Shown: piece after piece, positions 1,070-14,067 of the stretch | Position numbering within the stretch: the first letter of the stretch is position 1 | How the letters are laid out: the number at the start of each line of letters is the position of its first letter | Program-made: the position numbers and the translations under genes | The notes under the pieces: model-generated | The model's input: the letters and a program-made list of their open reading frames with translations, nothing else | Databases searched by the model: none | Told to the model about the DNA's origin: nothing | Source of the DNA: Lachnospiraceae bacterium | GTDB taxonomy: Bacteria; Bacillota; Clostridia; Lachnospirales; Lachnospiraceae | Assembly (NCBI GenBank): GCA_017412265.1 | Contig: JAFPYK010000211.1 | Location: forward strand, 1 to 29,941 | Reading direction: 5' to 3' | Length of the DNA: 29,941 bases

Positions 1070-1795
1070 TCAATTAACCTCCTTTACTGCTGCCGCATAG
1101 CTCTCATCCAGAGCCGCAAGCTCCGCCAGGCTGTCCACCTCGATGATGTCCCCCGCCTGCATCGGTGTAACCCCCAGCCGGTAGTTCTCCGGGTGGCAGA
1201 ACATCGCCACGTCGTCCCAGTAGATCTGCCGGTTTTTCCTCTCTTCAAACTCCAGCTCCAAGTCCTTCCGGAGCTGCCTTCCGTCTTCTGCGCTCCACCG
1301 GCTGATCGAATACAGCTGCCAGCCGTGCGCCCCGCCGGTGCGCGAACAGGAGGTCACGATCCCCTCCTCGTCCGTCTGCATCAGCCATTCATCGGTCTCC
1401 GCGTCGATCCAGACCCCGTTGTAGCCGGACCGCTCTGCCTCCGCCTTCAGGATCTCCGGCCGATAGATGATCTGGTCTCCGTCCAGGATCATCACATCCT
1501 CCAGATGCTCTCTCGCCACATAAAGCGACGAGATATTGTTGCAGGTATCGTAGTACGGATTCTCGATCAGCTGCACGCCCGGATACTCCGCCGGCAGCCC
1601 CGCGAATTTCTCCTTCAGATACCCGACCACGATATAGATCTCCGTGATCCCGTTGGCATGCAGCCCCTCGATCACGGTATCAATCATGCGCCGACCGTTC
1701 ACCGGAACCAGCGGCTTCGGGACCGTGAGCGTGAGCGGACGCATCCGCTGCCCGACGCCGGCTGCCATGATAATCGCTTTATTTACTCGAAACAA
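1070..1795 (-). CDS. licC: LicC-like choline-phosphate cytidylyltransferase (241 aa, TTG start)
   Basis: AIIMAAGVGQRMRPLT..PKPLV, NNISSLY, ILDGD, YWDDV and EVDS motifs. Lies between a choline kinase fusion and a BCCT transporter. Confidence 0.85.
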   Translation of the reverse strand: MFRVNKAIIMAAGVGQRMRPLTLTVPKPLVPVNGRRMIDTVIEGLHANGITEIYIVVGYLKEKFAGLPAEYPGVQLIENPYYDTCNNISSLYVAREHLEDVMILDGDQIIYRPEILKAEAERSGYNGVWIDAETDEWLMQTDEEGIVTSCSRTGGAHGWQLYSISRWSAEDGRQLRKDLELEFEERKNRQIYWDDVAMFCHPENYRLGVTPMQAGDIIEVDSLAELAALDESYAAAVKEVN

Positions 1796-3551
1796 CGTCC
1801 TTCATCTCCTCTGTCGCATAGCGGTAATAATCCTTCGCGAACCGGTACTGCCGCAGCGAATACTCGCCGAATTCCACGCCGAGGCTCCGCTTGTACTCGC
1901 ACCAGTTGCTCCACAGAAGTCCGCAGGCCGCCACATAACAATAGATCTTGATGCGCGTCTCCTTCGGGCAGTCCCCTTCAAAATACAGGTCGATCAGCCG
2001 GTCGATCTGCCATTTGTCATACAGGCTGTAGATCGAGAACATCGCCAGGTCCACATGCGGGTCCTGCATGCCCGAGTACTCCCAGTCCGTCAGCTGGAGC
2101 TCCTCCTCCCCGTCTGCCCCCTTGCAGAAGAGGAAATTATCCGGCACCGCGTCGATGTGCGTCAGCACACGCTCCTGCACATGCCAGTCAATGTAGCTCT
2201 TGAGAGAGAGGACCTGCTCCTTCGTCTTCTCGTAATCCCGGTACACCGAAGGCGCCCCTTTCCAGAGCGACTCATAGAATTCGATCTGTCCGAAGATGTC
2301 AAATGAATGGTCCACCGTGAGCTTCATCTCGTGGAACTCGCGCAGCTTGTCCATGCATCTCTTCAGGTCCGGCACACTGTCCGGATCCGCCACCCGGATT
2401 CCCTCCAGGTACTTCGTGATCTTGAATCCGTTCTCTGGATTGATATAGACCACGTCGTCGCAGAGCCCGTGCCCGGCGATCGTCTGATAGACCTTCGCCT
2501 CGTGGTGACGGTCGATCAGCTGGTCCGTGCCCTCGCCCGGGATCCGCATGATGAATTTCTCGCCGCGGACCGAGAAGAGGAAGGACCGGTTCGTCATGCC
2601 CTTCTTGAGCACCTGAATGCCCGTGATCTCCTCATGCCTGCAGCCGAAGACGCCGCAGATGACGTCCAGTGCGTCCGACTGCAGATGGTTCGAATCCGCG
2701 TCCAGCTCCCGCAGCTGCTCGTACGTATTGATCTCGACGATCTCATCCCCGGGCGCGATCCGCGCGCAGACGGTCATCCGGCCGTCCTCGAAGAGCGCCT
2801 TCTCCCAGAACGCGTCGTCATTCTTCGGATCCGCGCACAGAAGCGAGATCCGCTCCCGCAGCAGGCCCGCCTCCGGGCCCGTCAGGTAAGCGATTCCGAT
2901 CATACGGCTCCCGGTCTCGCCCGCGTCCGTGTGGACCAGCTCCCCCTTGCGGTTGATGCGCACTTCGCTCTCCGCGTCCGGCTGGTCGCTCACCATGTAC
3001 CAGGAATACAGCTCCCTCTCCGCAAACGGATTCTTCTCGCACCACAGATCCGCCGGAAGGATGTAGGTATTCGAGATCAGCCGGACCGCCAGGTCCAGGC
3101 TCTTTATATTATTTCTTGTCGCATATTCTTCGTTATAGATCAGCTGAACACCGAATTCATCGATCAGGTACTCAAACGCATCCTTCATGTAGCCGACCAC
3201 CACGGTGATATCCCGGATGTTGACTTCATGCAGCTGCCGGATCAGCCGGTCGATCAGCCGCTCCCCGTGCACCTCCAGAAGCCCCTTCGGCGTGTTCAGA
3301 TTGATCGGGACCATCCGCATGCCGAATCCCGCCGCAAGAATGATCGCATTCTTCGGCCGGTGCGCGGTCATCTCCTCCGCGGCCTTCCTCGTCAGCCGGA
3401 TCCCGTCATCTACAAACCCCGCATCCATCAGGCTGCGCAGCGAACGGTTGATCATCCCCAGCGAACAGCCGCAGCGCTCCGAGAGCACACGCTGATTCAC
3501 ATAAGGCTCCGCTGCCAGCGAAAGGAGAACATCTTTTTCTTGCTTGTTCAT
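1779..3551 (-). CDS. Three-domain fusion: winged HTH + LicC-like nucleotidyltransferase + LicA-like choline/ethanolamine kinase (590 aa)
   Basis: N-terminus NQRVLSERCGCSLGMINRSLRSLMDAGFV (wHTH); AIILAAGFGMRM..PKGLL (NTase); KKGMTNRSF, MRIPGEGT, THIDAVPDNFL, DWEYSGM (choline kinase-like). Start moved from 3581 to the ATG at 3551 because of the GAGAGG RBS and because 3581 lies only about 10 nt downstream of the -10 box, leaving no room for an RBS. Confidence 0.9.
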   Translation of the reverse strand: MNKQEKDVLLSLAAEPYVNQRVLSERCGCSLGMINRSLRSLMDAGFVDDGIRLTRKAAEEMTAHRPKNAIILAAGFGMRMVPINLNTPKGLLEVHGERLIDRLIRQLHEVNIRDITVVVGYMKDAFEYLIDEFGVQLIYNEEYATRNNIKSLDLAVRLISNTYILPADLWCEKNPFAERELYSWYMVSDQPDAESEVRINRKGELVHTDAGETGSRMIGIAYLTGPEAGLLRERISLLCADPKNDDAFWEKALFEDGRMTVCARIAPGDEIVEINTYEQLRELDADSNHLQSDALDVICGVFGCRHEEITGIQVLKKGMTNRSFLFSVRGEKFIMRIPGEGTDQLIDRHHEAKVYQTIAGHGLCDDVVYINPENGFKITKYLEGIRVADPDSVPDLKRCMDKLREFHEMKLTVDHSFDIFGQIEFYESLWKGAPSVYRDYEKTKEQVLSLKSYIDWHVQERVLTHIDAVPDNFLFCKGADGEEELQLTDWEYSGMQDPHVDLAMFSIYSLYDKWQIDRLIDLYFEGDCPKETRIKIYCYVAACGLLWSNWCEYKRSLGVEFGEYSLRQYRFAKDYYRYATEEMKDVVSSK

Positions 3552-3557
3552 GAACAA
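3544..3557. promoter_or_regulatory. Perfect 14-bp palindrome TTGTTCATGAACAA over the start codon of the wHTH fusion; candidate operator
   Basis: The palindrome is read directly from the sequence, with an extra TGAACA half-site at 3575-3580. Operator function is inference. Confidence 0.4.
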
Positions 3558-3591
3558 TGACCTCTCAATATTTGTGAACATCTACAGCCAC

Positions 3592-3620: not shown

Positions 3621-3783
3621 GCCTCTCGCCCGCCCACGCCCCATTTCCTCAGAAATTCTTCAGAATCTCATGCCGGACGGCCCCCTCTGGCCCTTCACAC
3701 TCTCCCGCTTGCGCATTTTCCCGACGATCTCGGACCGATCCGCGGCAAAATGTTGCTGATTTCAACTATACGTAGAAGAAGCA

Positions 3784-3812
3784 TTGACATCATTTTGTGA
3801 ATATGTTATATT
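3784..3812 (+). promoter_or_regulatory. Sigma70/SigA promoter with extended -10, driving the ugd cassette
   Basis: TTGACA (3784-3789), 17-nt spacer, TG-n-TATATT (-10 at 3807-3812). Confidence 0.8.
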
Positions 3813-3885
3813 TTCCAGCAGACAACCGCAGAATGTGTTGTCTTCAGCAACAGATTATTACTCTCAGACGAGAAAGGAATATAAG

Positions 3886-5388
3886 ATGAAACGTTTGGAC
3901 CGTACCGATATGATCCGGCAGATCGTCTCCCGCCGCAAAGCGCTGCATCTCACCCAGACAGAGCTCGCGCAGCGCACCGGGATGAACCGTTCTGTCCTGT
4001 CCAACCTGGAAAATGGTATCTATATGCCCAGCATCGAACAGCTGGAATTGATCGCAGAGGAATTATCGATCGATATCACCTCTCTTTATAAGGAAGATTC
4101 CCCCGCGAAGGCGGAGGTTCCCGGAACTTTTCAGATCGCCGTCGCCGGTGTCGGATACGTCGGCCTCTCCCTGGCCGTCCTGTTATCCCAGCACCACCGC
4201 GTGACCGCCGTGGACATCGTCCCCGATAAGGTCGACAAGGTCAACCGCCTTCAGTCCCCGATCCGCGACGAATACATCGAGCGCTTCTTCTCGGAAGCCT
4301 CCTTGGGCGAGCGCGAGCTGGACCTGAAGGCCGTCACCGACGGCAGCCCGGCTTACCTGGCCGCGGACTTCATCATCATCGCCGCGCCGACCAACTACGA
4401 TGCCAAGCTGAATTTCTTTGACTGCTCCGCGGTCCGCTCCGTGCTGGACCAGGTGCAGGCCGCCTGCGCGTCCCGCCAGGATTCCCCGGTCGTGGTCATC
4501 AAGTCCACGGTGCCCGTCGGCTTCACCGCCCAGGTGCGCAGGGAATACCCCGGCCTCAAGATCATCTTCAGCCCGGAGTTCCTCCGCGAATCCAAGGCCT
4601 TATACGACAATCTGTATCCGAGCCGCATCATCGTGGGATGCGACGAAGACACCCGGGAGGATGCCCGGATCTTCGCCTCCCTCCTGCAGCAGGGCGCCTG
4701 GAAGAACCCCGTGGAAACCCTCTTCATGGGCACGACCGAGGCAGAGGCGACGAAGCTCTTCGTCAACACCTACCTCGCGCTGCGCGTATCCTTCTTCAAT
4801 GAGCTCGACACCTACGCAGAGGTGAAGTCGCTGAACTCCGCCTCCATCATCAAGGGTGTCTGCACCGACCCCCGCGTCGGCGACTTCTACAACAACCCGT
4901 CCTTCGGCTACGGCGGCTACTGCCTGCCGAAAGACACGAAGCAGCTTCTCGCCAACTATCAGGACGTTCCCGAGAACCTGATCCAGGCCATCGTGGAATC
5001 GAACCGGACCCGAAAGTCCTTCATCGCAGACCGCGTCCTGGAGATCGCAGGTGTCTACGGCAGCAACGATTCCTACTCCCCGGCGCGCGAGCAGCAGCAG
5101 AGAGACATCGTCGTCGGCGTGTACCGGCTGACGATGAAGTCCGACTCGGACAACTTCCGCCAGTCCTCGATCCAGGGCGTCATGAAGAGAATCAAGGCCA
5201 AAGGCGCCACGGTCATCATCTATGAGCCCACCCTGGAAGACGGCTCCACGTTCTTCGGCAGCAAAGTCGTCAACGACCTGGAGACCTTCAAGAAAGCCTG
5301 CGGCTGCATCCTCGCCAACCGCTACGACCCCGCGCTCGACGACGTCGCCGACCGCGTCTACACCCGTGACCTGTTCCGCAGAGACTGA
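3886..5388 (+). CDS. ugd: XRE/Cro-type HTH fused to UDP-glucose 6-dehydrogenase (500 aa)
   Basis: [29 protein letters not shown] (XRE HTH), then [48 protein letters not shown] (catalytic Cys) and YTRDLF. Start moved to the ATG at 3886 (AAAGGA RBS); the ORF-track start at 3784 is the -35 box. Confidence 0.93.
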
Positions 5389-5422: not shown

Positions 5423-6601
5423 ATGAGCAAGAAATGCGAAGAACGCTTTTATGAGATCTATCAGAGAGACGCAGAAGGCGTCTCCTTCTGCCCCTACCGT
5501 ATCTGCCCGATCGGTGCCCACTCGGACCACAACCTCGGCAAGATCACCGGCCTCGCGATCAACAAGGGCATCCATATCGCCTACCGCCCGAAGAAGAACG
5601 GCGTCATCGAGATGGCTTCCCTCCAGTTCCCGAAGCGAGCCCAGTGGCACATCCATTCCGTGCCGAAATTCAAGGAAAATGACTGGGCCGACTACCTGCG
5701 CGGCGCGACGTGGGCTCTCGAGAAGCACCACACCCTGAACGTCGGCCTCTGCGGCGTCATCGAGGGTTCCCTCCCGATCGGAGGCCTCTCCTCCAGCGCG
5801 GCCGTCATCCTGGCCTTCCTCTCCGCTCTCTGCAAGGTGAACGGAATTCATTTAACCGCGCAGCAGATGATCGACACCGCGTTCGACGCGGAGAAGAACT
5901 ACGTCGGCGTCTCCGTCGGCACCCTGGACCAGAGCTGCGAGGTGTTAGGCAAGAAGGACCATCTCCTCTACCTCGACACCAGGGACAACTCCTACGAGCT
6001 GATTCCCACCAGCCCGGTGATGAAGCCCTACAAGATCGCGATCTTCTTCAGCGGCCTGGAGCACAGCCTCGCCGGATCCAAGTACAATATGCGTGTCGAC
6101 GAGCTCCGCTCCGGCGTCTACGCGCTGCAGGCCTATGCCGGTCTCCCTTATGGGAAGTTCAACGAAGCCAACGCGAGAAATGTCCCGCGCGAGATCTATG
6201 ACGCCTACAAGGACCGCCTGCCGATCCCGTGGGCGAAGCGCTGCGAGCACTGGTATACGGAGTTTGAGCGCGTGGAGAAGGGCGCCGAAGCCTGGCGCCG
6301 CGGCGACATCGAGGAATACGGCCGCCTCTCCTTCGAGTCCGGCTGGAGCAGCATCCACAACTGGGAATCCGGCGCTCCGGAGCAGATCCGTCTCTACGAG
6401 ATCATGCGCGAGACCAAGGGCATCTACGGCGGGCGCTTCAGCGGAGCCGGCTTCAAGGGCTGCTGCATGGCCCTGATCGATCCCGCCTACGTGGAGAGCA
6501 TCGAAGAATCTGTCACAAGCAAATACCTGGGATCTTTCCCGGAACTCACCGGCAAATACTCCTTCCACCTGTGCGAGAGCGCCAACGGAACCGAACGTTA
6601 A
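5423..6601 (+). CDS. GHMP-family anomeric sugar kinase, galacturonokinase-like (392 aa)
   Basis: PYRICPIGAHSDH, GLSSSAAV, GTLDQS, FSGL, YNMRV, KRCEH and YGGRFSGAGFKGCCMA. Start set at the ATG at 5423 after an AAGGAG RBS. The family is certain; the substrate is inferred. Confidence 0.85.
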   Translation: MSKKCEERFYEIYQRDAEGVSFCPYRICPIGAHSDHNLGKITGLAINKGIHIAYRPKKNGVIEMASLQFPKRAQWHIHSVPKFKENDWADYLRGATWALEKHHTLNVGLCGVIEGSLPIGGLSSSAAVILAFLSALCKVNGIHLTAQQMIDTAFDAEKNYVGVSVGTLDQSCEVLGKKDHLLYLDTRDNSYELIPTSPVMKPYKIAIFFSGLEHSLAGSKYNMRVDELRSGVYALQAYAGLPYGKFNEANARNVPREIYDAYKDRLPIPWAKRCEHWYTEFERVEKGAEAWRRGDIEEYGRLSFESGWSSIHNWESGAPEQIRLYEIMRETKGIYGGRFSGAGFKGCCMALIDPAYVESIEESVTSKYLGSFPELTGKYSFHLCESANGTER

Positions 6602-6620: not shown

Positions 6621-7358
6621 ATGAAATGCATTGTTTTAGCGGCAGGCTATGCCACGCGTCTGTATCCTCTGACCGAGAACTTTCCGAAGCCCCTTCTGAA
6701 GGTCGGCGACAAAACCATCCTGGACTGGCTGCTCTGCGACATTGACCGCTCCGGCCTGATCGACGAATACATCGTCATCTCCAACCACCGGTTTGCCGGC
6801 CATTTTCAGGCATGGGCAGAGAATCACACGCTTCCTCTTCGCATCATCGACGACGGGACCTCTTCCAACGAGACGCGTCTGGGCGCGGTCCGTGATATCC
6901 AGTTCGCTCTGGATGAGACCGGCATCAGCGACGACCTCCTGATCGTCGCCGGCGACAACCTCCTGGACTTTTCCCTGGTCTCCTTCCTGCAGTATGCGCA
7001 GGCGAAGCAGACCTCCTGCACGATGCGCTACTACGAGGCAGATGAAAAACGCCTGAGCAAGAGCGGCGTCGCCGAGATCTCGGACGATGAGCGGATCTTG
7101 TCCTTTGAGGAGAAGCCGGCCGTCCCCAGGTCCCACTGGTGCACGCCTCCCTTCTACATCTACCGCAAGGAAGACGCGGCCCGCATCAAGGACGCCCTGC
7201 AGGACGGATGCGGCACCGACGCTCCCGGCAGCCTGATCTCCTGGATGTGCCGGCACACCGTCATGCACAGCATGCAGATGCCCGGCAGCCGCTATGACAT
7301 CGGCGACCTGAAGAGCTACGAGAACGCACAGAAGAATTATCACGGATTACAGAAGTGA
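6621..7358 (+). CDS. Sugar-1-phosphate nucleotidyltransferase (NTP_transferase family, 245 aa)
   Basis: MKCIVLAAGYATRLYPLTENFPKPLL, AGDN, FEEKP, DIG motifs; AAGGA RBS. Confidence 0.9.
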   Translation: MKCIVLAAGYATRLYPLTENFPKPLLKVGDKTILDWLLCDIDRSGLIDEYIVISNHRFAGHFQAWAENHTLPLRIIDDGTSSNETRLGAVRDIQFALDETGISDDLLIVAGDNLLDFSLVSFLQYAQAKQTSCTMRYYEADEKRLSKSGVAEISDDERILSFEEKPAVPRSHWCTPPFYIYRKEDAARIKDALQDGCGTDAPGSLISWMCRHTVMHSMQMPGSRYDIGDLKSYENAQKNYHGLQK

Positions 7359-7367
7359 GGTAAAGCG

Positions 7368-8432
7368 ATGAACAAGACTAGAGTCGAACTGGAAGGAAAA
7401 ACCATCCTTGTGACCGGATCTCCCGGATTCATCGGGGCCAACCTGGTCCTCAAGCTGCGGGAAGAGCTGCATCAGGGAAGAGTCATTTCCCTCGATAATA
7501 TGAACGAATATTATGATCCCGCCTTGAAGGATTACCGGCTTGCGCTGATCGAGAAGCAGGATTCCCCCGTAGAGCACATTTTCATCAAAGGCTCCATCGC
7601 GGATGCCGCTCTGGTCCGCGAGGTATTTGAGACCTACCGCCCGCAGGTGGTCGTGAACCTGGCCGCACAGGCCGGCGTCCGGTATTCGATCGATCATCCG
7701 GACGTCTATATCGAGAGCAACCTGATCGGCTTCTTCAACATTCTGGAGGCCTGCCGCCACTACGAGGTCGAGCACCTGGTCTACGCCTCCAGCTCCTCCG
7801 TGTACGGAGGCAACACCAAGGTTCCCTTCTCCGTGGAGGACAAGGTCGACAACCCGGTCTCCCTGTACGCGGCAACCAAGAAGAGCAATGAGCTCCTGGC
7901 CCACAGCTACTCCAAGCTGTACAACATCCCTTCCACGGGCCTGCGTTTCTTCACGGTCTACGGACCCGCCGGCCGGCCGGATATGTTCTATTATTCCGCC
8001 ACGGAGAGACTTGTGCGGGGCGAGTCCATCAAGCTCTTCAACTACGGCAACTGCAAGAGAGACTTCACCTATGTGGACGATATCGTCGAGGGCATCTACC
8101 GCGTCATGCAGGGTGCTCCCGCGAAAATGACCGGAGCGGACGGGCTTCCGATCCCGCCCTACGCGGTCTACAACATCGGCGGCGGCACACCGGAGAATCT
8201 GATGGATTACATCCAGACGCTCCAGGAGGAGCTGGTCGATGCCGGCGTTCTCCCGCAGGACTATGATTTCGAGGCCCACCGGGAGCTGGTCGGCATGCAG
8301 CCCGGCGATGTGCCGGTCACCTACGCGGACTCCTCTGCCCTGGAGCAGGACTTCGGCTTCCGGCCGTCCATCGGAATCCGCGAGGGCCTTCGCGCATTTG
8401 CCCGCTGGTACAAGGAGTACTACGGCATCTGA
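7368..8432 (+). CDS. UDP-glucuronate 4-epimerase (extended SDR, 354 aa)
   Basis: TGSPGFIG, NLAAQAGVRYS, YASSSSVYG, PVSLYAATKKSNEL, GLRFFTVYGPAGRPDM and QPGDV are characteristic of the UDP-GlcA epimerase subgroup. Confidence 0.88.
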   Translation: MNKTRVELEGKTILVTGSPGFIGANLVLKLREELHQGRVISLDNMNEYYDPALKDYRLALIEKQDSPVEHIFIKGSIADAALVREVFETYRPQVVVNLAAQAGVRYSIDHPDVYIESNLIGFFNILEACRHYEVEHLVYASSSSVYGGNTKVPFSVEDKVDNPVSLYAATKKSNELLAHSYSKLYNIPSTGLRFFTVYGPAGRPDMFYYSATERLVRGESIKLFNYGNCKRDFTYVDDIVEGIYRVMQGAPAKMTGADGLPIPPYAVYNIGGGTPENLMDYIQTLQEELVDAGVLPQDYDFEAHRELVGMQPGDVPVTYADSSALEQDFGFRPSIGIREGLRAFARWYKEYYGI

Positions 8433-8451: not shown

Positions 8452-8492
8452 AAAAACGCCTGAGAATCCGCAGATTCTCAGGCGTTTTTTTT
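8452..8492. terminator. Bidirectional intrinsic terminator between the convergent epimerase and wzx genes
   Basis: AAAAACGCCTGAGAATC-cgca-GATTCTCAGGCGTTTTT perfect inverted repeat; T8 on the plus strand and T5 on the minus strand. Confidence 0.92.
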
Positions 8493-8499
8493 GTCATTC

Positions 8500-9996
8500 T
8501 TACTTATTCTTATGCAGTTTCTTTTTGAGGAAAGCCATCAGCGGCTTGATCTGCTCTCTGTGCAGATACAGGTTGATTCCGATATAGAGCAGGACGATGA
8601 CGACCTTGAATCCGAAGTTCAGAATGATGAACTTATTGCCGTACTTGAAGAAGGACAGTGACAGTCCCGCGGCGATAAACCCGGATACCATCACGAAGTT
8701 TAAGAGGAAATCCTTCATCTTCAGGCCGATGTCCTCGAACCTCCGGCTGATGAAATAGATGATCAGCACGCGGATCACCATCGAGATTCCGTCCGCCGCA
8801 ATCGATCCCAGGACCCCCCACGCGGGGATCAGGAAGTACGACAGGAGCACGTTCAGGATACTGCTCGTCACGGTCGCGGTGAAGAGGAACTTCGAGGCCT
8901 TCTTGTAGTAGAACAGGACCTCCACGTAGAAATAATAAGCCGTCTTGATCGTGAACACCAGCACGATCAGCGGGACGTATTTCCACGCGTCATAGTAATC
9001 CTTCTTGATGAACAGGATGATGTAATCATGGGCAAAAAGTGATATACCCAGGAAGAACAGGCCGATCACCGCGCACAGCAGCTTCACGGTCTTGCGGATG
9101 TTGCTCTTGTAGGCCTCTTCTCTCGCGTGCAGCTTCTCGTACAGCCAGGGGCCGTACGCATAATCCACATAATTCTGCACCGTATCCGCCATGTTGCCGA
9201 ACTGCGTCGCAACCGTATAGACGCCCAGGCTGCCGAGCGACACCGCGTCGCCGATCAGGACCTTCGATACCAGGACCGCGATCTGCGTCGACAGGTTGTG
9301 CGGCATGATCGGCACCGAGTACTTCAGCGCCTTCTTAAGCAGCGGCAGGTCCAGGCAGTACACCATCTGCCGGGTCGCCAGCATGTAGATGATGAAATAG
9401 ATCGAGTGAGCGCCGTAAGAGATCGCAGACGCAAGGATCGTTCCGAGCGCGCCCATCTTGAGGACCACGACAAAGAGAATGTTCAGCCCCAGAGTCACGA
9501 AGAAGAACACGATCGTAACCAGCGAGCTGTGCATGGCCTTCTGCTGGCTTCGCAGCACATTGTCGAAGATCAGCTGCTGGCAGTGAAACAGCAGGGCGAT
9601 CAGGCTGACGAAGATGATCGGATAATACGGTACCCCGGAGAAAATGTGCTCCGATACCAGTCCCCGCAGCAATGTCAGCAGCGTCCCGAACACAAGGCCG
9701 GAGAGCAATGTGAACAGGCTGATCGTACCATAGAAGCGTTTGAGCTGCTCCGGGTCATCCTTCAGGTCCACATAGAAGCGCATGACTGCAGAGAACAGGG
9801 AAAATGCAACCACGAAGCCCATCGTGGTGATGAAGCTGGTGGCAATACTGTTAATTCCGTAGTCCTCGGTCGTCAGATACGCGGTGTAGAGCGGAAGGAG
9901 GAAGAAGCTGAAGCACTTCAGCAGCAGTCCGCTTGCCGAATATATAAACGAGTTTAATACCACCCGTTTTGTTGTTGTATTTTTCTGTTCAGCCAT
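8500..9996 (-). CDS. wzx: Wzx polysaccharide repeat-unit flippase (498 aa)
   Basis: NSFIYS...FFLLPLYTAYLTTEDYG N-terminus and many hydrophobic segments; last gene of the operon. Confidence 0.9.
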   Translation of the reverse strand: MAEQKNTTTKRVVLNSFIYSASGLLLKCFSFFLLPLYTAYLTTEDYGINSIATSFITTMGFVVAFSLFSAVMRFYVDLKDDPEQLKRFYGTISLFTLLSGLVFGTLLTLLRGLVSEHIFSGVPYYPIIFVSLIALLFHCQQLIFDNVLRSQQKAMHSSLVTIVFFFVTLGLNILFVVVLKMGALGTILASAISYGAHSIYFIIYMLATRQMVYCLDLPLLKKALKYSVPIMPHNLSTQIAVLVSKVLIGDAVSLGSLGVYTVATQFGNMADTVQNYVDYAYGPWLYEKLHAREEAYKSNIRKTVKLLCAVIGLFFLGISLFAHDYIILFIKKDYYDAWKYVPLIVLVFTIKTAYYFYVEVLFYYKKASKFLFTATVTSSILNVLLSYFLIPAWGVLGSIAADGISMVIRVLIIYFISRRFEDIGLKMKDFLLNFVMVSGFIAAGLSLSFFKYGNKFIILNFGFKVVIVLLYIGINLYLHREQIKPLMAFLKKKLHKNK

Positions 9997-11119
9997 TCTT
10001 CAGCCCTTCTAACCACAGCTCGCGGTGCGCCTCGCATTCGATGAAATTCTCAAGCGCGATGCGCTGTGCTTTTGTATATTTTTTCTTGAGAAGCCGGCGA
10101 TAGTAGCGGCCGCCGCTCAGGCGGTTGAGCACCTTGGTCGCGAAGCCTCTCTTGCCGAAGACCGCGTTCTCATAGACGTGGAACATCTCCGCGGCAAATT
10201 TGCGATAATTCTCCTCGATGAACCCGTCCTTCCGGATCTCCTCGCCGCGTGCCCGGAAGGCATCCAGGATCTCTGCCGCCTCTGCTCCTTCGGCCAGCCG
10301 CACCGCATGCCCGTTCTTGACCACCGGATGGTATGTGACATTCAGCCCGCCTTCGGTGTCCACCTCCAGCAGCAGTCCCGTCAGCCAGCACTCGTGGTCA
10401 TCCAGGTCAAAGAGAAGATTGCCCTGCCCGTAGATGATTCTGCCGCCCTGATACTTCTCCTCACAGCCGATGCAGTGAGAATGCTGGCAGATCACGAGAT
10501 CCGCCCCCTTCTCCACCAGCTTGCGGCAGGTCTTCTGAAGCTGCGGGGAAGGATACCGGTAGAGCTCCTTGCCTCCGTGGTACAGAACGATCACATGATC
10601 ACAGTTCTTCTTCAGCTCTGCCACCTGGTCCGGAACGGTCAGCGGGTCGAACGGATTCGCACCCGGGCGCTTCTCTCCTGCGATCGAGAACTCGTGCTCC
10701 GCGCAGGCGATGACTCCGACGCTCACATCTCCCTTCTGCAGGATATACGGCTTCGCGGCCTCCGCGAGATTCTCTCCGGCACCCACATGGGCGATCCCGG
10801 CCTCATCCAGCACGCGGATCGTCGAGAAGAGGCCCTCCGTCCCCTGGTCGAGGATGTGATTGTTCGCAGCCGCGGCCAGCGTAATCCCCAGAGCCTTGTA
10901 TCCCGCGATGCAGGATGTCGCGGCCCGCAGGGCCGGCCCGTGCTTCTCAATCGGGGTCTGGTGGTCCGTCAGAGGCACCTCCAGGTTAATCACCGCCGCA
11001 TCCGCCTGATGTAATAAGCTCAACAGTTCGGAGCCGACAAGGCCGGCTCCGTCCCCTTTTTCAAATAAGGCGGTATTCGCTTTTGTAGGGACGACATCTG
11101 CCCCAATCATCAACTTCAT
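9989..11119 (-). CDS. CapA/PGA_cap-family metallophosphatase-fold protein (376 aa), no obvious signal peptide
   Basis: GAD, INLE, ANNHILDQG, HGGKE, QHSH and YGQGNLLF motifs. Confidence 0.85.
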   Translation of the reverse strand: MKLMIGADVVPTKANTALFEKGDGAGLVGSELLSLLHQADAAVINLEVPLTDHQTPIEKHGPALRAATSCIAGYKALGITLAAAANNHILDQGTEGLFSTIRVLDEAGIAHVGAGENLAEAAKPYILQKGDVSVGVIACAEHEFSIAGEKRPGANPFDPLTVPDQVAELKKNCDHVIVLYHGGKELYRYPSPQLQKTCRKLVEKGADLVICQHSHCIGCEEKYQGGRIIYGQGNLLFDLDDHECWLTGLLLEVDTEGGLNVTYHPVVKNGHAVRLAEGAEAAEILDAFRARGEEIRKDGFIEENYRKFAAEMFHVYENAVFGKRGFATKVLNRLSGGRYYRRLLKKKYTKAQRIALENFIECEAHRELWLEGLKNG

Positions 11120-11134
11120 CTGTCTGTTCTCCTG

Positions 11135-12007
11135 TTATTTTGCAGCTCTCTGCTGAAAGAGGCGGATCCGGTTCGTGTGATATTTCACCTCGTGGATGCG
11201 TCTGGGCAGCGGCGGTACACTCATATAATCACCGTAGAGCAGCGCCAGCAGTTCCTCGCGCCGCACCGGGACGCGGATCGGCCCGTAGCCCGTCTCGACG
11301 ACCTCGGTCTCCTTCATGAGCTCTGCCGGGTAATCCTTCCAGTCCGCATAGGTATCCGCAGTCACATAATAGGTAGCTCCCTCCAGCGGGTACTTCTCCG
11401 CAAGCTCCCGGTAAGTCCGGTCGATCTTCCCGACGGACGCCAGCAGGGCCGGCAGTTTTCTCTTCAGAAGCAGCGAAGCAAACCGCCGCGGCCGTCCCAT
11501 CGACTCCTCGATCAGATTCACAAACTTCCCGTAGCGCTTCTCCGAGATATCCGCCATCTGCCTGGCAAATGCCCTCCGCTCCGCCTCATCCTCCGGCGAG
11601 CCGATCAGGAAGAAGACATCCACGTGCAGCGCCTCGGTCCGGTACTCCTTCGGAGCCAACCGCATGATCATATGCCGGCAGCGCGGATCCAGGTCCGGCG
11701 AGTACGCATAATACTCGCTGCCAAGGTCCTTCCGGAGCGCCTCCAGAAGCTTCTCCTTCTCCGCGAAAGGCACCAGCACGTCCACGTCATAGTCCCACGG
11801 AATCTGGCCTCCGTCGCGCACGACACCCAGCAGAGACCCGTAGGCGAGCTGGTAATTGACCTGGTTCTTCTCACAGACCCGGTGCAGCTTGGCCAGCGTC
11901 TTCGCCGTCACGCCCTGATACACCTGAAATTCCTTGTATGTCTCTTCAAAATCCGCGGGACACTCATCCCACGCCAACGCTTCCTTTAAAAACTCTTCCG
12001 ATGTCAT
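11135..12007 (-). CDS. licD: LicD/fukutin-family phosphotransferase (290 aa)
   Basis: [34 protein letters not shown] motifs. Confidence 0.88.
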   Translation of the reverse strand: [290 protein letters not shown]

Positions 12008-12928
12008 CTACGACTCCTTGCCGGGCAATTTGATCCAGCTGCCCAGCAGCAGATCATATTCCTTCTTGTCAAACGGTGCGAACCCCGCCCCGTCATAGAA
12101 CGTCAGCTCTCCGAAATACAGCTTCCCGCTGACACAGTACCAATCCACCCGGATGTGCGGGATTCCTTCCGACAGGATGCGGGAGCAACGAAGCATCTCA
12201 TCCAGTACCGGCGGCTTCGGGAAATCCTTCCCCGAGGTGTGGTATTTCCGGAGCTGTCCCTGCGAGATCTCGCTTCTCTTCCACTCCACGTCATAGTAAT
12301 CCTGCGTGGGATGGTCCGAGTATCTCCCCTGGTGCAGCTCGATGAGCTTCGGCTCTCCGCCGAAGCACAGGACCTTATAATCCCTCAGTTCCTCTCCGGT
12401 GTCGTCCTCCATGTACTGCTCTGCGATGATGCGCGGCTTGATATCCTTGTACGGCCACTCCCGGAACTTCTGATAATAGTTCTGCTTCAGCCCCTCGCGC
12501 AGGGTCTTCCGGGCCTTCTCTTCATCCAGCTTGCTGCGGTCCTTGCAGATCACGAGCCCGTGGCTGTCGTGCGTGCACTTGAGCACGAACTGGTCGGGCA
12601 GCTCCTTAAAATCGATGTCCTCCGCCCGCTCCCAGACACCCAGATTCGGAATCACATACTGTGCCCCGATCTTCTGCGAGACATATTCCTTCACCGCATA
12701 CTTGTCTGCCATCGTCGTATACAGCGGATTGTGATCATGCAGCTTCAGCCACTGCAGCTTCTCGTTGAATGTGCGCGGGTTTTCCAGATCCAGCGGATAT
12801 CCCATCAGCAGCCGGAACTTCTTCTTCAGGAACTTCTCATCCGACATCTTATTCAGGAAACCATAATCCGAGAGCACCGCGAAACGGTACTTCGGATCGC
12901 GCAGCAAACGAATGCATTTTTCGATCAT
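12008..12928 (-). CDS. TupA-like ATP-grasp protein, copy 1 (306 aa)
   Basis: PRTFNEKLQWLKL, DKYAVKEYV, FVLKCTHDS, REWPYKDIKPRIIAE, DYKVLCFGG, RVDWY, GELTFY. Confidence 0.88.
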   Translation of the reverse strand: MIEKCIRLLRDPKYRFAVLSDYGFLNKMSDEKFLKKKFRLLMGYPLDLENPRTFNEKLQWLKLHDHNPLYTTMADKYAVKEYVSQKIGAQYVIPNLGVWERAEDIDFKELPDQFVLKCTHDSHGLVICKDRSKLDEEKARKTLREGLKQNYYQKFREWPYKDIKPRIIAEQYMEDDTGEELRDYKVLCFGGEPKLIELHQGRYSDHPTQDYYDVEWKRSEISQGQLRKYHTSGKDFPKPPVLDEMLRCSRILSEGIPHIRVDWYCVSGKLYFGELTFYDGAGFAPFDKKEYDLLLGSWIKLPGKES

Positions 12929-12992
12929 GACTCTACTCCCGTCCTTTCATAGATCTTATCTACATTCTGATGATTTATTCAGTTATCGTCAG

Positions 12993-13017
12993 AAAAACTG
13001 CCGGCGCCTGCCGGCAG
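12993..13017 (-). terminator. Intrinsic terminator inside the polysaccharide operon
   Basis: Minus strand CTGCCGGC-aggc-GCCGGCAG-TTTTT, starting about 15 nt after the stop of tupA copy 2. Confidence 0.75.
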
Positions 13018-13032
13018 CACCTCTTACTTCTT

Positions 13033-13944
13033 CTATCTCTGCTTCGGCGGCAGGACGATCCAGTCTCCCAGCGTTCTGTCCCATTCCTCCGGCGTGAACT
13101 CCTCGAAGCCCCCGCCCGGGAAGAACGTCATCTCTCCGAAGAGGACCTTCCCGTCCAGATCATAGAAATCCACCCGCACGAAAGGAATCCCTTCGCTGAG
13201 GATCTCCGCAAGCCTGCACATCTCTTCATACTGCTCCGGCTTGTCGATCACTTCACTGCTGGCAGGATAATGCCGCTCGAAGGTCATCCGCTCCCAGTCC
13301 TTGTCGAAGAACGTGACCTTCAGCCCCTTCCCGTTGAAGCGGTCCGTGCAGACAAATGAGCACTTGACCTCGCCTCCGAAGCACATGATCTTATAATCAT
13401 TGAGCTCCCCGTGAGCATCCTCCAGGTAGGGCTCTGCGAGAATTCTCGGCTTGACGTTCTTGTACGGCCACTCTCTGCCGTAGTAGAAGAAATTCCTCGT
13501 CAGGCAATGATCAATCTTCTGTTTGGCGGCCTCTTTGTCCAGCCGGCTCTTGTCCTTGCAGATGACCAGTCCGCCGCTGTCATGCGTGCATTTGAGCACA
13601 AACTGATCCGGAAGAGCATCAAAATCGATCTCCTCAAAGGAATCCCACACGCCCAGCGTGGGAATGACATATTCTCTGCCGATCTGCTTCGACACATACT
13701 CCTTGACCTTCTCCTTGTCTACCAGGTCCGTATACTTCGGATTGTGGTCATAGAGCTTCAGCCACTGCAGCTTCTCGTTGAACGTCTTCGGCTCTTCGAG
13801 GTTCGGCTCACAGCCCATCACCACCCGGAATTTCCTGTGGATGAATTCCTCATCCGAGAGCCGGTTTAAGAACCCTTTGGACGCATTGACAAGAAATCTG
13901 TACTTTGGGTCTCTCGCATAGCGGATTAATTTCTGAATCAACAT
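13033..13944 (-). CDS. TupA-like ATP-grasp protein, copy 2 (303 aa)
   Basis: PKTFNEKLQWLKL, FVLKCTHDSGG, REWPYKNVKPRILAE, RVDFY, GEMTFFPGGG. Start moved to the ATG at 13944 (GAGGAG RBS). Confidence 0.88.
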   Translation of the reverse strand: MLIQKLIRYARDPKYRFLVNASKGFLNRLSDEEFIHRKFRVVMGCEPNLEEPKTFNEKLQWLKLYDHNPKYTDLVDKEKVKEYVSKQIGREYVIPTLGVWDSFEEIDFDALPDQFVLKCTHDSGGLVICKDKSRLDKEAAKQKIDHCLTRNFFYYGREWPYKNVKPRILAEPYLEDAHGELNDYKIMCFGGEVKCSFVCTDRFNGKGLKVTFFDKDWERMTFERHYPASSEVIDKPEQYEEMCRLAEILSEGIPFVRVDFYDLDGKVLFGEMTFFPGGGFEEFTPEEWDRTLGDWIVLPPKQR

Positions 13945-14067
13945 CGGTTTCTCCTCGCGCAAGTGAAACATATTGCCTGTCAGAGAAACAACGTTTCATA
14001 CTCCCATGTATGCTCAGATTCGTTACTTAGAGATCCGTTTTACCGGGACGCCTCCCGGCCTGCCCGG

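Follow-up and report, generated by a model that had tools for sequence, protein, structure and literature searches.

The fusion gene and its operon

The window, meaning the whole stretch of DNA analyzed here, is 29,941 nucleotides long and comes from a Lachnospiraceae bacterium. It carries a single open reading frame that joins an XRE-type helix-turn-helix (HTH) domain to a UDP-glucose 6-dehydrogenase (Ugd). Three further genes and an intrinsic terminator follow on the same strand. The features of the fusion gene and its operon are as follows:

3873-3878, + strand: ribosome-binding site AAAGGA, 7 nt before the ATG, read from the sequence
3886-5388, + strand: HTH-Ugd fusion gene, a single 500-aa open reading frame with its ATG at 3886
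3886-4089, + strand: XRE/Cro-C1 HTH domain, aa 1-68 (Pfam HTH_3; AF2 model)
3988-4011, + strand: predicted recognition helix, aa 35-42 (helix 3 of the AF2 model)
4090-4128, + strand: linker of 13 aa (aa 69-81), variable in sequence and conserved in length
4129-5388, + strand: UDP-glucose 6-dehydrogenase module, aa 82-500 plus the stop codon, of the HasB/Ugd type and complete
4921-4923, + strand: codon of the catalytic Cys346
5423-6601, + strand: GHMP (galactokinase-like) sugar-1-kinase, gene 2 of the operon
6621-7358, + strand: sugar-1-phosphate nucleotidyltransferase, gene 3 of the operon
7368-8432, + strand: NAD-dependent epimerase (UDP-glucuronate 4-epimerase-like), gene 4 of the operon
8452-8489, + strand: intrinsic terminator closing the four-gene operon (17-bp stem, then a T run)

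The original prediction, made from the letters of the sequence, held that an XRE HTH at the N-terminus and a full Ugd share one frame and that no separate start precedes the Ugd domain. Both points are borne out. Specifically, Pfam places HTH_3 (PF01381) at aa 16-65, with an E-value of 1.2e-13 and 51.3 bits vs a cutoff of 23. Three Ugd domains follow in the same 500-aa frame, all above their gathering cutoffs: UDPG_MGDP_dh_N (PF03721) at aa 83-258, the central Ugd domain (PF00984) at aa 285-374, and the C-terminal UDP-binding domain (PF03720) at aa 411-487. No ATG, GTG, or TTG occurs in frame between M47 and M281. Thus, the enzyme part has no separate start and should not be makeable alone. 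Among the NCBIfam models, TIGR03026 scores 292 bits on the fusion vs a cutoff of 189.8. The Ugd equivalog PRK15057 scores 499.6 bits, short of its cutoff of 757, and so the assignment of Ugd substrate specificity rests on ~55-60% identity to HasB/Ugd.

Occurrence and origin of the fusion

The assembly that holds the window is 1.96 Mb in size, lies in 343 contigs, and is 84% complete. The stretch is present in bovine-gut metagenome runs from at least 10 studies, and in four independent bovine-gut studies, short contigs run across the HTH-linker-Ugd junction (nt 4090-4128), with no indel reported. A search of a 5.8-billion-protein collection places the same architecture well beyond this genome, in more than 120 protein clusters. 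Of the best 120 matches, 119 are 493-544 aa long, carry PF01381 together with Ugd domains, and align over 98-100% of the query at 69-75% identity (one at 99%). The exception, P0004, is 611 aa long, has 84% query coverage, and has no HTH family listed. Source names, where given, read “nucleotide sugar dehydrogenase” or “UDPglucose 6-dehydrogenase”. A search against 50%-identity representatives returned mostly fragmentary or plain Ugd proteins and two clear fusions (P0144 and P0240), and it is unfit for family counting. Finally, a scan of one genome per species finds the fusion in 74 species-level genomes. The notion that the fusion is an artefact, either an assembly chimera or a read-through joining two genes that are in fact separate, can draw on the fragmentation and incompleteness of the source genome, but it is effectively refuted by the junction-spanning contigs, by the hundreds of independent assemblies, cultured isolates included, that show the same architecture, and by the absence of a start codon at the junction.

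Most of the 74 carriers belong to the Lachnospiraceae, the Oscillospiraceae/Ruminococcus, and the Erysipelotrichaceae, and they are mostly Bacillota of the gut and rumen; a few are MAGs of Coriobacteriia. Cultured carriers include Dorea hominis NSJ-36, Streptococcus suis YS161, a Ligilactobacillus, Absicoccus intestinalis, and Lactonifactor. In the window’s own order, 5 of 301 sampled genomes carry the fusion. Thus, the fusion is patchy and is not a lineage trait. In a tree of the Ugd module, the fusions cluster strongly (6 label changes vs 27 in shuffles), the window’s gene sits inside a fully supported clade of 36 fusions, and the taxonomy is scrambled. This pattern is consistent with a small number of origins and subsequent horizontal spread together with polysaccharide loci.

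Two of the fusion genes appear interrupted. In [Clostridium] polysaccharolyticum DSM 1801 (L055, 5001-6512), one in-frame stop falls in the conserved N(F/Y)FD motif, which reads N*FD; either the gene is a pseudogene in the type strain or the stop is a sequencing error. The fusion gene in a Slackia MAG (L065) appears to be frameshifted.

An intact dehydrogenase

The best solved matches to the enzyme module are Klebsiella pneumoniae Ugd (3PHL) and Streptococcus pyogenes HasB (1DLI), both with an E-value of ~1e-133. Both alignments begin at aa 82 of the fusion, and F82 occupies the position of their Met1. From there the enzyme module aligns end to end with the solved enzymes, and it shares with them the NAD motif and every catalytic residue. 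The solved enzymes, by contrast, begin at the Rossmann fold, whereas the fusion adds 81 N-terminal residues (HTH plus linker); it also has a short insertion, relative to 3PHL and 1DLI, at about aa 388-405. A search for a PDB chain spanning both the HTH and the Ugd modules found none. Solved relatives of this Ugd class are dimers.

The NAD motif, the Lys, and the catalytic Cys had each been read as intact, and the alignment agrees: all of the HasB catalytic residues have counterparts in the fusion. The NAD motif is G88-x-G90-x-x-G93. T208 corresponds to HasB T118, E231 and E235 to E141 and E145, K290 to K204, N294 to N208, C346 to C260, and D350 to D264. Among 188 full-length homologues, the catalytic Cys motif is kept in all 188, and the other catalytic motifs are kept in 187-188. 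Therefore, the members of the HTH-Ugd family are best regarded as enzymes and not as enzyme-derived sensors, and, judged by its residues, the fusion protein is very likely an active Ugd. It is also the sole Ugd found in the 84%-complete assembly of the window’s genome.

A conserved HTH on a linker of conserved length

Among 120 homologues, mean column conservation is 0.74 for the HTH, 0.43 for the linker, and 0.88 for the Ugd module. The original prediction was coupled to a check on whether the HTH keeps conserved recognition residues, and it does: R17, Q24, G32, R35, S39, E42, P48, and Q52 are invariant or nearly so. Specifically, both alignments show no variation at R17, Q24, E42, P48, Q52, and also L60; L27, G32, and R35 hardly vary, if at all, among homologues, and the 21-sequence N-terminal alignment has S39 throughout. 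On these measures of conservation, both halves of the fusion are under selection.

The AF2 model of the fusion has a mean pLDDT of 82.5. It places the HTH helices at aa 6-19, 24-31, 35-42, 50-60, and 64-67, with block-mean pLDDT values of 82-94. Confidence is lower in the linker, with a block-mean pLDDT of 68 for aa 71-80. The length of the linker is nevertheless tightly held, with the GxGxxG motif beginning at aa 87-90 in 167 of 188 homologues, and this constancy hints that the geometry between the HTH and Ugd modules matters.

The closest solved relatives of the HTH are a designed DNA-binding protein, PezA, and SinR. The fusion shares the five-helix HTH fold with small XRE repressors (434 repressor/Cro, SinR, and PezA), and its putative operator, described below, is likewise palindromic, with half-site centers ~12 bp apart. 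The difference lies in dimerization. Small XRE repressors dimerize by a small C-terminal domain, whereas in the fusion the 420-aa enzyme would do so.

A probable operon for UDP-uronic acids within a surface-polysaccharide locus

By its content, the operon seems to combine salvage and de novo routes to UDP-uronic acids. The gene found most often with the fusion is the epimerase, which is 60-85% identical, on the same strand, and downstream of the fusion in about half of 72 loci. The kinase and nucleotidyltransferase pair lies beside the fusion gene in ~8 other loci of the 72. The full set of kinase, nucleotidyltransferase, and epimerase genes after ugd recurs in L031, L046, L050, L066, L096, and L102.

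The operon lies within a surface-polysaccharide locus that includes genes for a Wzx-like flippase, PGA_cap, LicD, and TupA-like ATP-grasp proteins. In the window, these genes occupy 8500-13971 on the - strand, and the two TupA-like ATP-grasp genes adjoin each other (12008-12928 and 13033-13971). The gene content of this remaining part of the locus points to a surface polymer bearing phosphocholine or amino acid decorations. On the other side of the fusion, at 1779-3581 on the - strand, a divergent neighbor encodes a winged-helix HTH_24 domain (aa 11-57) fused to enzyme domains of its own, namely a nucleotidyltransferase (aa 79-184) and a choline-kinase/APH domain (aa 322-544); the protein resembles LicC-LicA.

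A palindrome at fusion promoters

A strong sigma-70-type promoter precedes the fusion gene, and three copies of a 17-bp palindrome are arranged around it:

3751-3767: distal operator-like palindrome TGTTGCTGATTTCAACT, matching at 9/10 positions, 17 nt upstream of the -35 box
3784-3812, + strand: sigma-70-type promoter with 11/12 consensus matches
3784-3789 and 3807-3812, + strand: near-consensus -35 box TTGACA and TG-extended -10 box TATATT, separated by a 17-nt spacer
3804-3820: second operator-like palindrome TGTTATATTTTCCAGCA, matching at 9/10 positions, overlapping the -10 box and the predicted TSS
3836-3852: proximal operator-like palindrome TGTTGTCTTCAGCAACA, matching at 10/10 positions, centered at about +25 from the predicted TSS

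The palindrome, TGTTRY-N5-RYAACA, is a candidate operator found at promoters of fusion genes. To derive it, short inverted repeats were counted blind in the 220-nt regions preceding 73 fusion genes. The count yielded the search pattern TGTT[AG]-N7-[CT]AACA, which is scored at its 10 defining positions. Exact matches occur in 34 of the 73 upstream regions vs 0.1 in shuffles, and matches at 9 or more of the 10 positions occur in 49 of 73 vs 3.1 in shuffles. Positions 6 and 7, which lie outside the search pattern, are also biased, toward Y and then T, giving the consensus TGTTRYT-WWW-ARYAACA with an A/T-rich center. Twenty-four of the 73 regions have no match at 9 or more positions. Several loci with no clear match have variant palindromes of the same 17-bp geometry, e.g., TGTCAT-N5-ATGACA and TGATAT-N5-ATATCA.

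The site is largely confined to these promoters. There are 47 exact sites in the 15.7 kb of upstream sequence vs 3 in 607 kb from the rest of these loci, a ~600-fold difference in density. Upstream of plain ugd genes, by comparison, matches at 9 or more positions number 0 of 29. Within the 29.9-kb window, all three such matches fall in 3751-3852. The strict form TGTTGC-N5-GCAACA occurs at 10 sites in five other whole genomes (2.0-4.3 Mb), and 9 of the 10 lie at the fusion promoter; a reversed control pattern has no occurrence in those five genomes. The window’s genome (1.96 Mb) contains 4 exact palindromes vs 3.4 expected from base composition, and only the site at 3836 lies at a promoter. We considered the other three as further regulon targets and rejected them: two lie over long open frames and one lies in a terminator-like hairpin. 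The last of these, on contig C110 of G000 (3312-3328), sits within a GC-rich structure (CCGGCC-TGTTGCAGATCACAACA-GGCCGG) and is probably a chance match.

The arrangement seen in the window recurs elsewhere. The window’s palindromes are spaced by 53 bp (distal to second), 32 bp (second to proximal), and 85 bp, near 5, 3, and 8 helical turns, and spacings of 32-33, 52-53, 83-84, and 127-134 bp turn up repeatedly at other fusion loci. Most homologous loci have a comparable promoter, placed 60-80 nt before the ATG. In 24 of the 42 loci with a recognizable promoter, the proximal palindrome is centered at +25 to +40 from the predicted TSS, and distal palindromes in other fusion loci lie at -60 to -130. 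Such placement is what would be expected of a repressor, possibly one that binds cooperatively or forms loops.

The original prediction also proposed that the fusion may repress its own operon in response to UDP-Glc, UDP-GlcA, or NADH. This idea gains from a conserved 17-bp palindrome that brackets the gene’s own promoter and is almost absent elsewhere. It gains nothing from co-variation between the recognition helix and the operator. Specifically, residue 36 (S/A/G/T) co-varies with operator base 5 (G/A) at a raw Fisher p of 0.003, but there is no trend in phylogenetically independent pairs, and the operator base follows locus GC (0.50 vs 0.42). We therefore discarded this co-variation.

A proposed trigger enzyme that may control its own operon

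We propose that the fusion protein is a trigger enzyme that autoregulates the UDP-uronic-acid operon through the palindromic operator, and, from the sequence evidence, we give this reading a probability of about 0.62. One protein would act both as a catalytically competent Ugd and as a regulator, with the XRE HTH permanently attached at its N-terminus. The two HTH domains of a dimer would bind the 17-bp palindromes upstream of, over, and just downstream of the protein’s own promoter. The bound protein would most likely repress its own operon, i.e., ugd and the genes for the GHMP kinase, the nucleotidyltransferase, and the UDP-GlcA 4-epimerase-like enzyme. The surface-polysaccharide locus around the operon would, in turn, draw its UDP-uronic acids from it. 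Binding of UDP-Glc, UDP-GlcA, or NAD(H) in the active site could alter how the HTH is presented, such that transcription would track the level of substrate or product. Because the operator is essentially unique in the genome, the fusion would be a local, single-target autoregulator.

A more specific version of the trigger-enzyme reading, which we put forward tentatively, is that the Ugd catalytic cycle gates operator binding, either as the domains close on UDP-Glc and NAD+ or as the products UDP-GlcA and NADH occupy the enzyme, in a device that has spread horizontally among gut and rumen bacteria. If so, the enzyme would itself sense nucleotide sugars or redox state directly and set the transcription of the UDP-uronic-acid operon. 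To our knowledge, no transcription factor of this type has been described for the supply of cell-surface polysaccharide precursors.

Feedback could also operate with no ligand at all. The HTH would bind the palindrome, nucleotide sugars and NAD(H) would have no effect, and the concentration of the enzyme itself would be the signal, as in plain negative autoregulation. The operator evidence is the same for this arrangement as for a trigger enzyme, and the poorly conserved linker, with its lower model confidence, does not suggest a tight allosteric interface. The tightly conserved length of that linker points the other way, however, as does the fact that the known fused trigger enzymes BirA, NadR, PutA, and RbkR respond to ligands. 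We consider ligand-blind feedback unlikely, albeit a credible competitor.

The palindrome might instead belong to another regulator, in which case the fused HTH would serve other DNA targets, protein-protein contacts, or nucleoid tethering. What links the fused HTH to the palindrome is the co-occurrence of gene and site, the co-variation test is negative, and one third of the loci have no clear site. Nonetheless, the site accompanies the fusion gene in different families and phyla despite differing neighbor genes, it is absent from the 29 plain-ugd promoters, and it is almost unique to the fusion promoter in six genomes. A homologue of the window’s divergent neighbor was sought next to the fusion gene in 72 other loci and not found, and no further regulator gene is conserved in the neighborhood. 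Ownership of the site by another regulator is thus improbable.

Still less probable, and in our estimate very much so, is that the palindrome works as RNA, with a hairpin in the 5' UTR affecting stability or translation. The proximal copy does lie within the predicted 5' UTR in most loci. The distal copies, however, lie upstream of the -35 box and would not be transcribed from the fusion promoter, the fold of the window’s 5' UTR is no better than that of shuffled sequences (z = -0.94), and conserved arms around a variable AT-rich center are typical of sites bound by protein dimers.

Relationship to known systems

The trigger-enzyme reading has precedents in other pathways. BirA, NadR, PutA, and archaeal RbkR are trigger enzymes with a fused DNA-binding domain (PMC5397151). 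In each, an active enzyme is covalently joined to a DNA-binding domain, and the operators lie at genes of the enzyme’s own pathway, which is the logic that we infer for the fusion. The sequence of the fusion likewise has intact catalytic residues and a DNA-binding domain in one polypeptide, the features by which a trigger enzyme of this kind is recognized. The fusion differs from these proteins in its enzyme family, in the type of its DNA-binding domain (XRE HTH_3), and in its pathway (nucleotide-sugar oxidation).

In layout, the closest known protein is BzdR, which consists of an N-terminal XRE HTH, a linker, and a shikimate-kinase-like domain (PMC3602430). The fusion has the same order of XRE HTH, linker, and enzyme fold. 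An NCBIfam model for an anaerobic benzoate catabolism transcriptional regulator, PRK08154, which we take to be of the BzdR type, weakly matches aa 9-79. The enzyme-like domain of BzdR is a sensor and not a working enzyme. We considered the equivalent for the fusion, in which catalysis has been lost and only ligand sensing remains, and ruled it out: unlike BzdR, the fusion family keeps its catalytic residues in 187-188 of 188 homologues. A literature search on HTH-Ugd fusions found no relevant paper and no biochemical work.

Ugd is a point at which the supply of capsule, exopolysaccharide, and uronic acids is controlled, and the known means of controlling bacterial Ugd are tyrosine phosphorylation and separate regulators. 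If the trigger-enzyme reading is correct, the fusion would give abundant Firmicutes of the gut and rumen a compact means of feedback control over the supply of polysaccharide precursors, and the few known trigger enzymes with a fused DNA-binding domain would be joined by one that acts on a sugar nucleotide. The system is simple to assay: it consists of one protein and a single 17-bp site, and enzyme activity could be followed spectrophotometrically. The fusion could also be usable as a nucleotide-sugar-responsive switch.

Finally, some genomes pair the fusion with a plain Ugd, which lies directly beside it in ~9 of the 72 other loci. In L039, L045, L046, L048, L049, L086, and L100, a plain Ugd of ~430 aa (57-58% identical) lies at about +1514 to +1579 from the fusion start. 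In the Ugd-module tree, these tandem plain copies fall together in a fully supported clade of their own; they did not arise by recent duplication. In genomes with such a pair, the fusion may be mainly a sensor or regulator. In one further locus, L074, the adjoining plain Ugd gene is divergent from the fusion.
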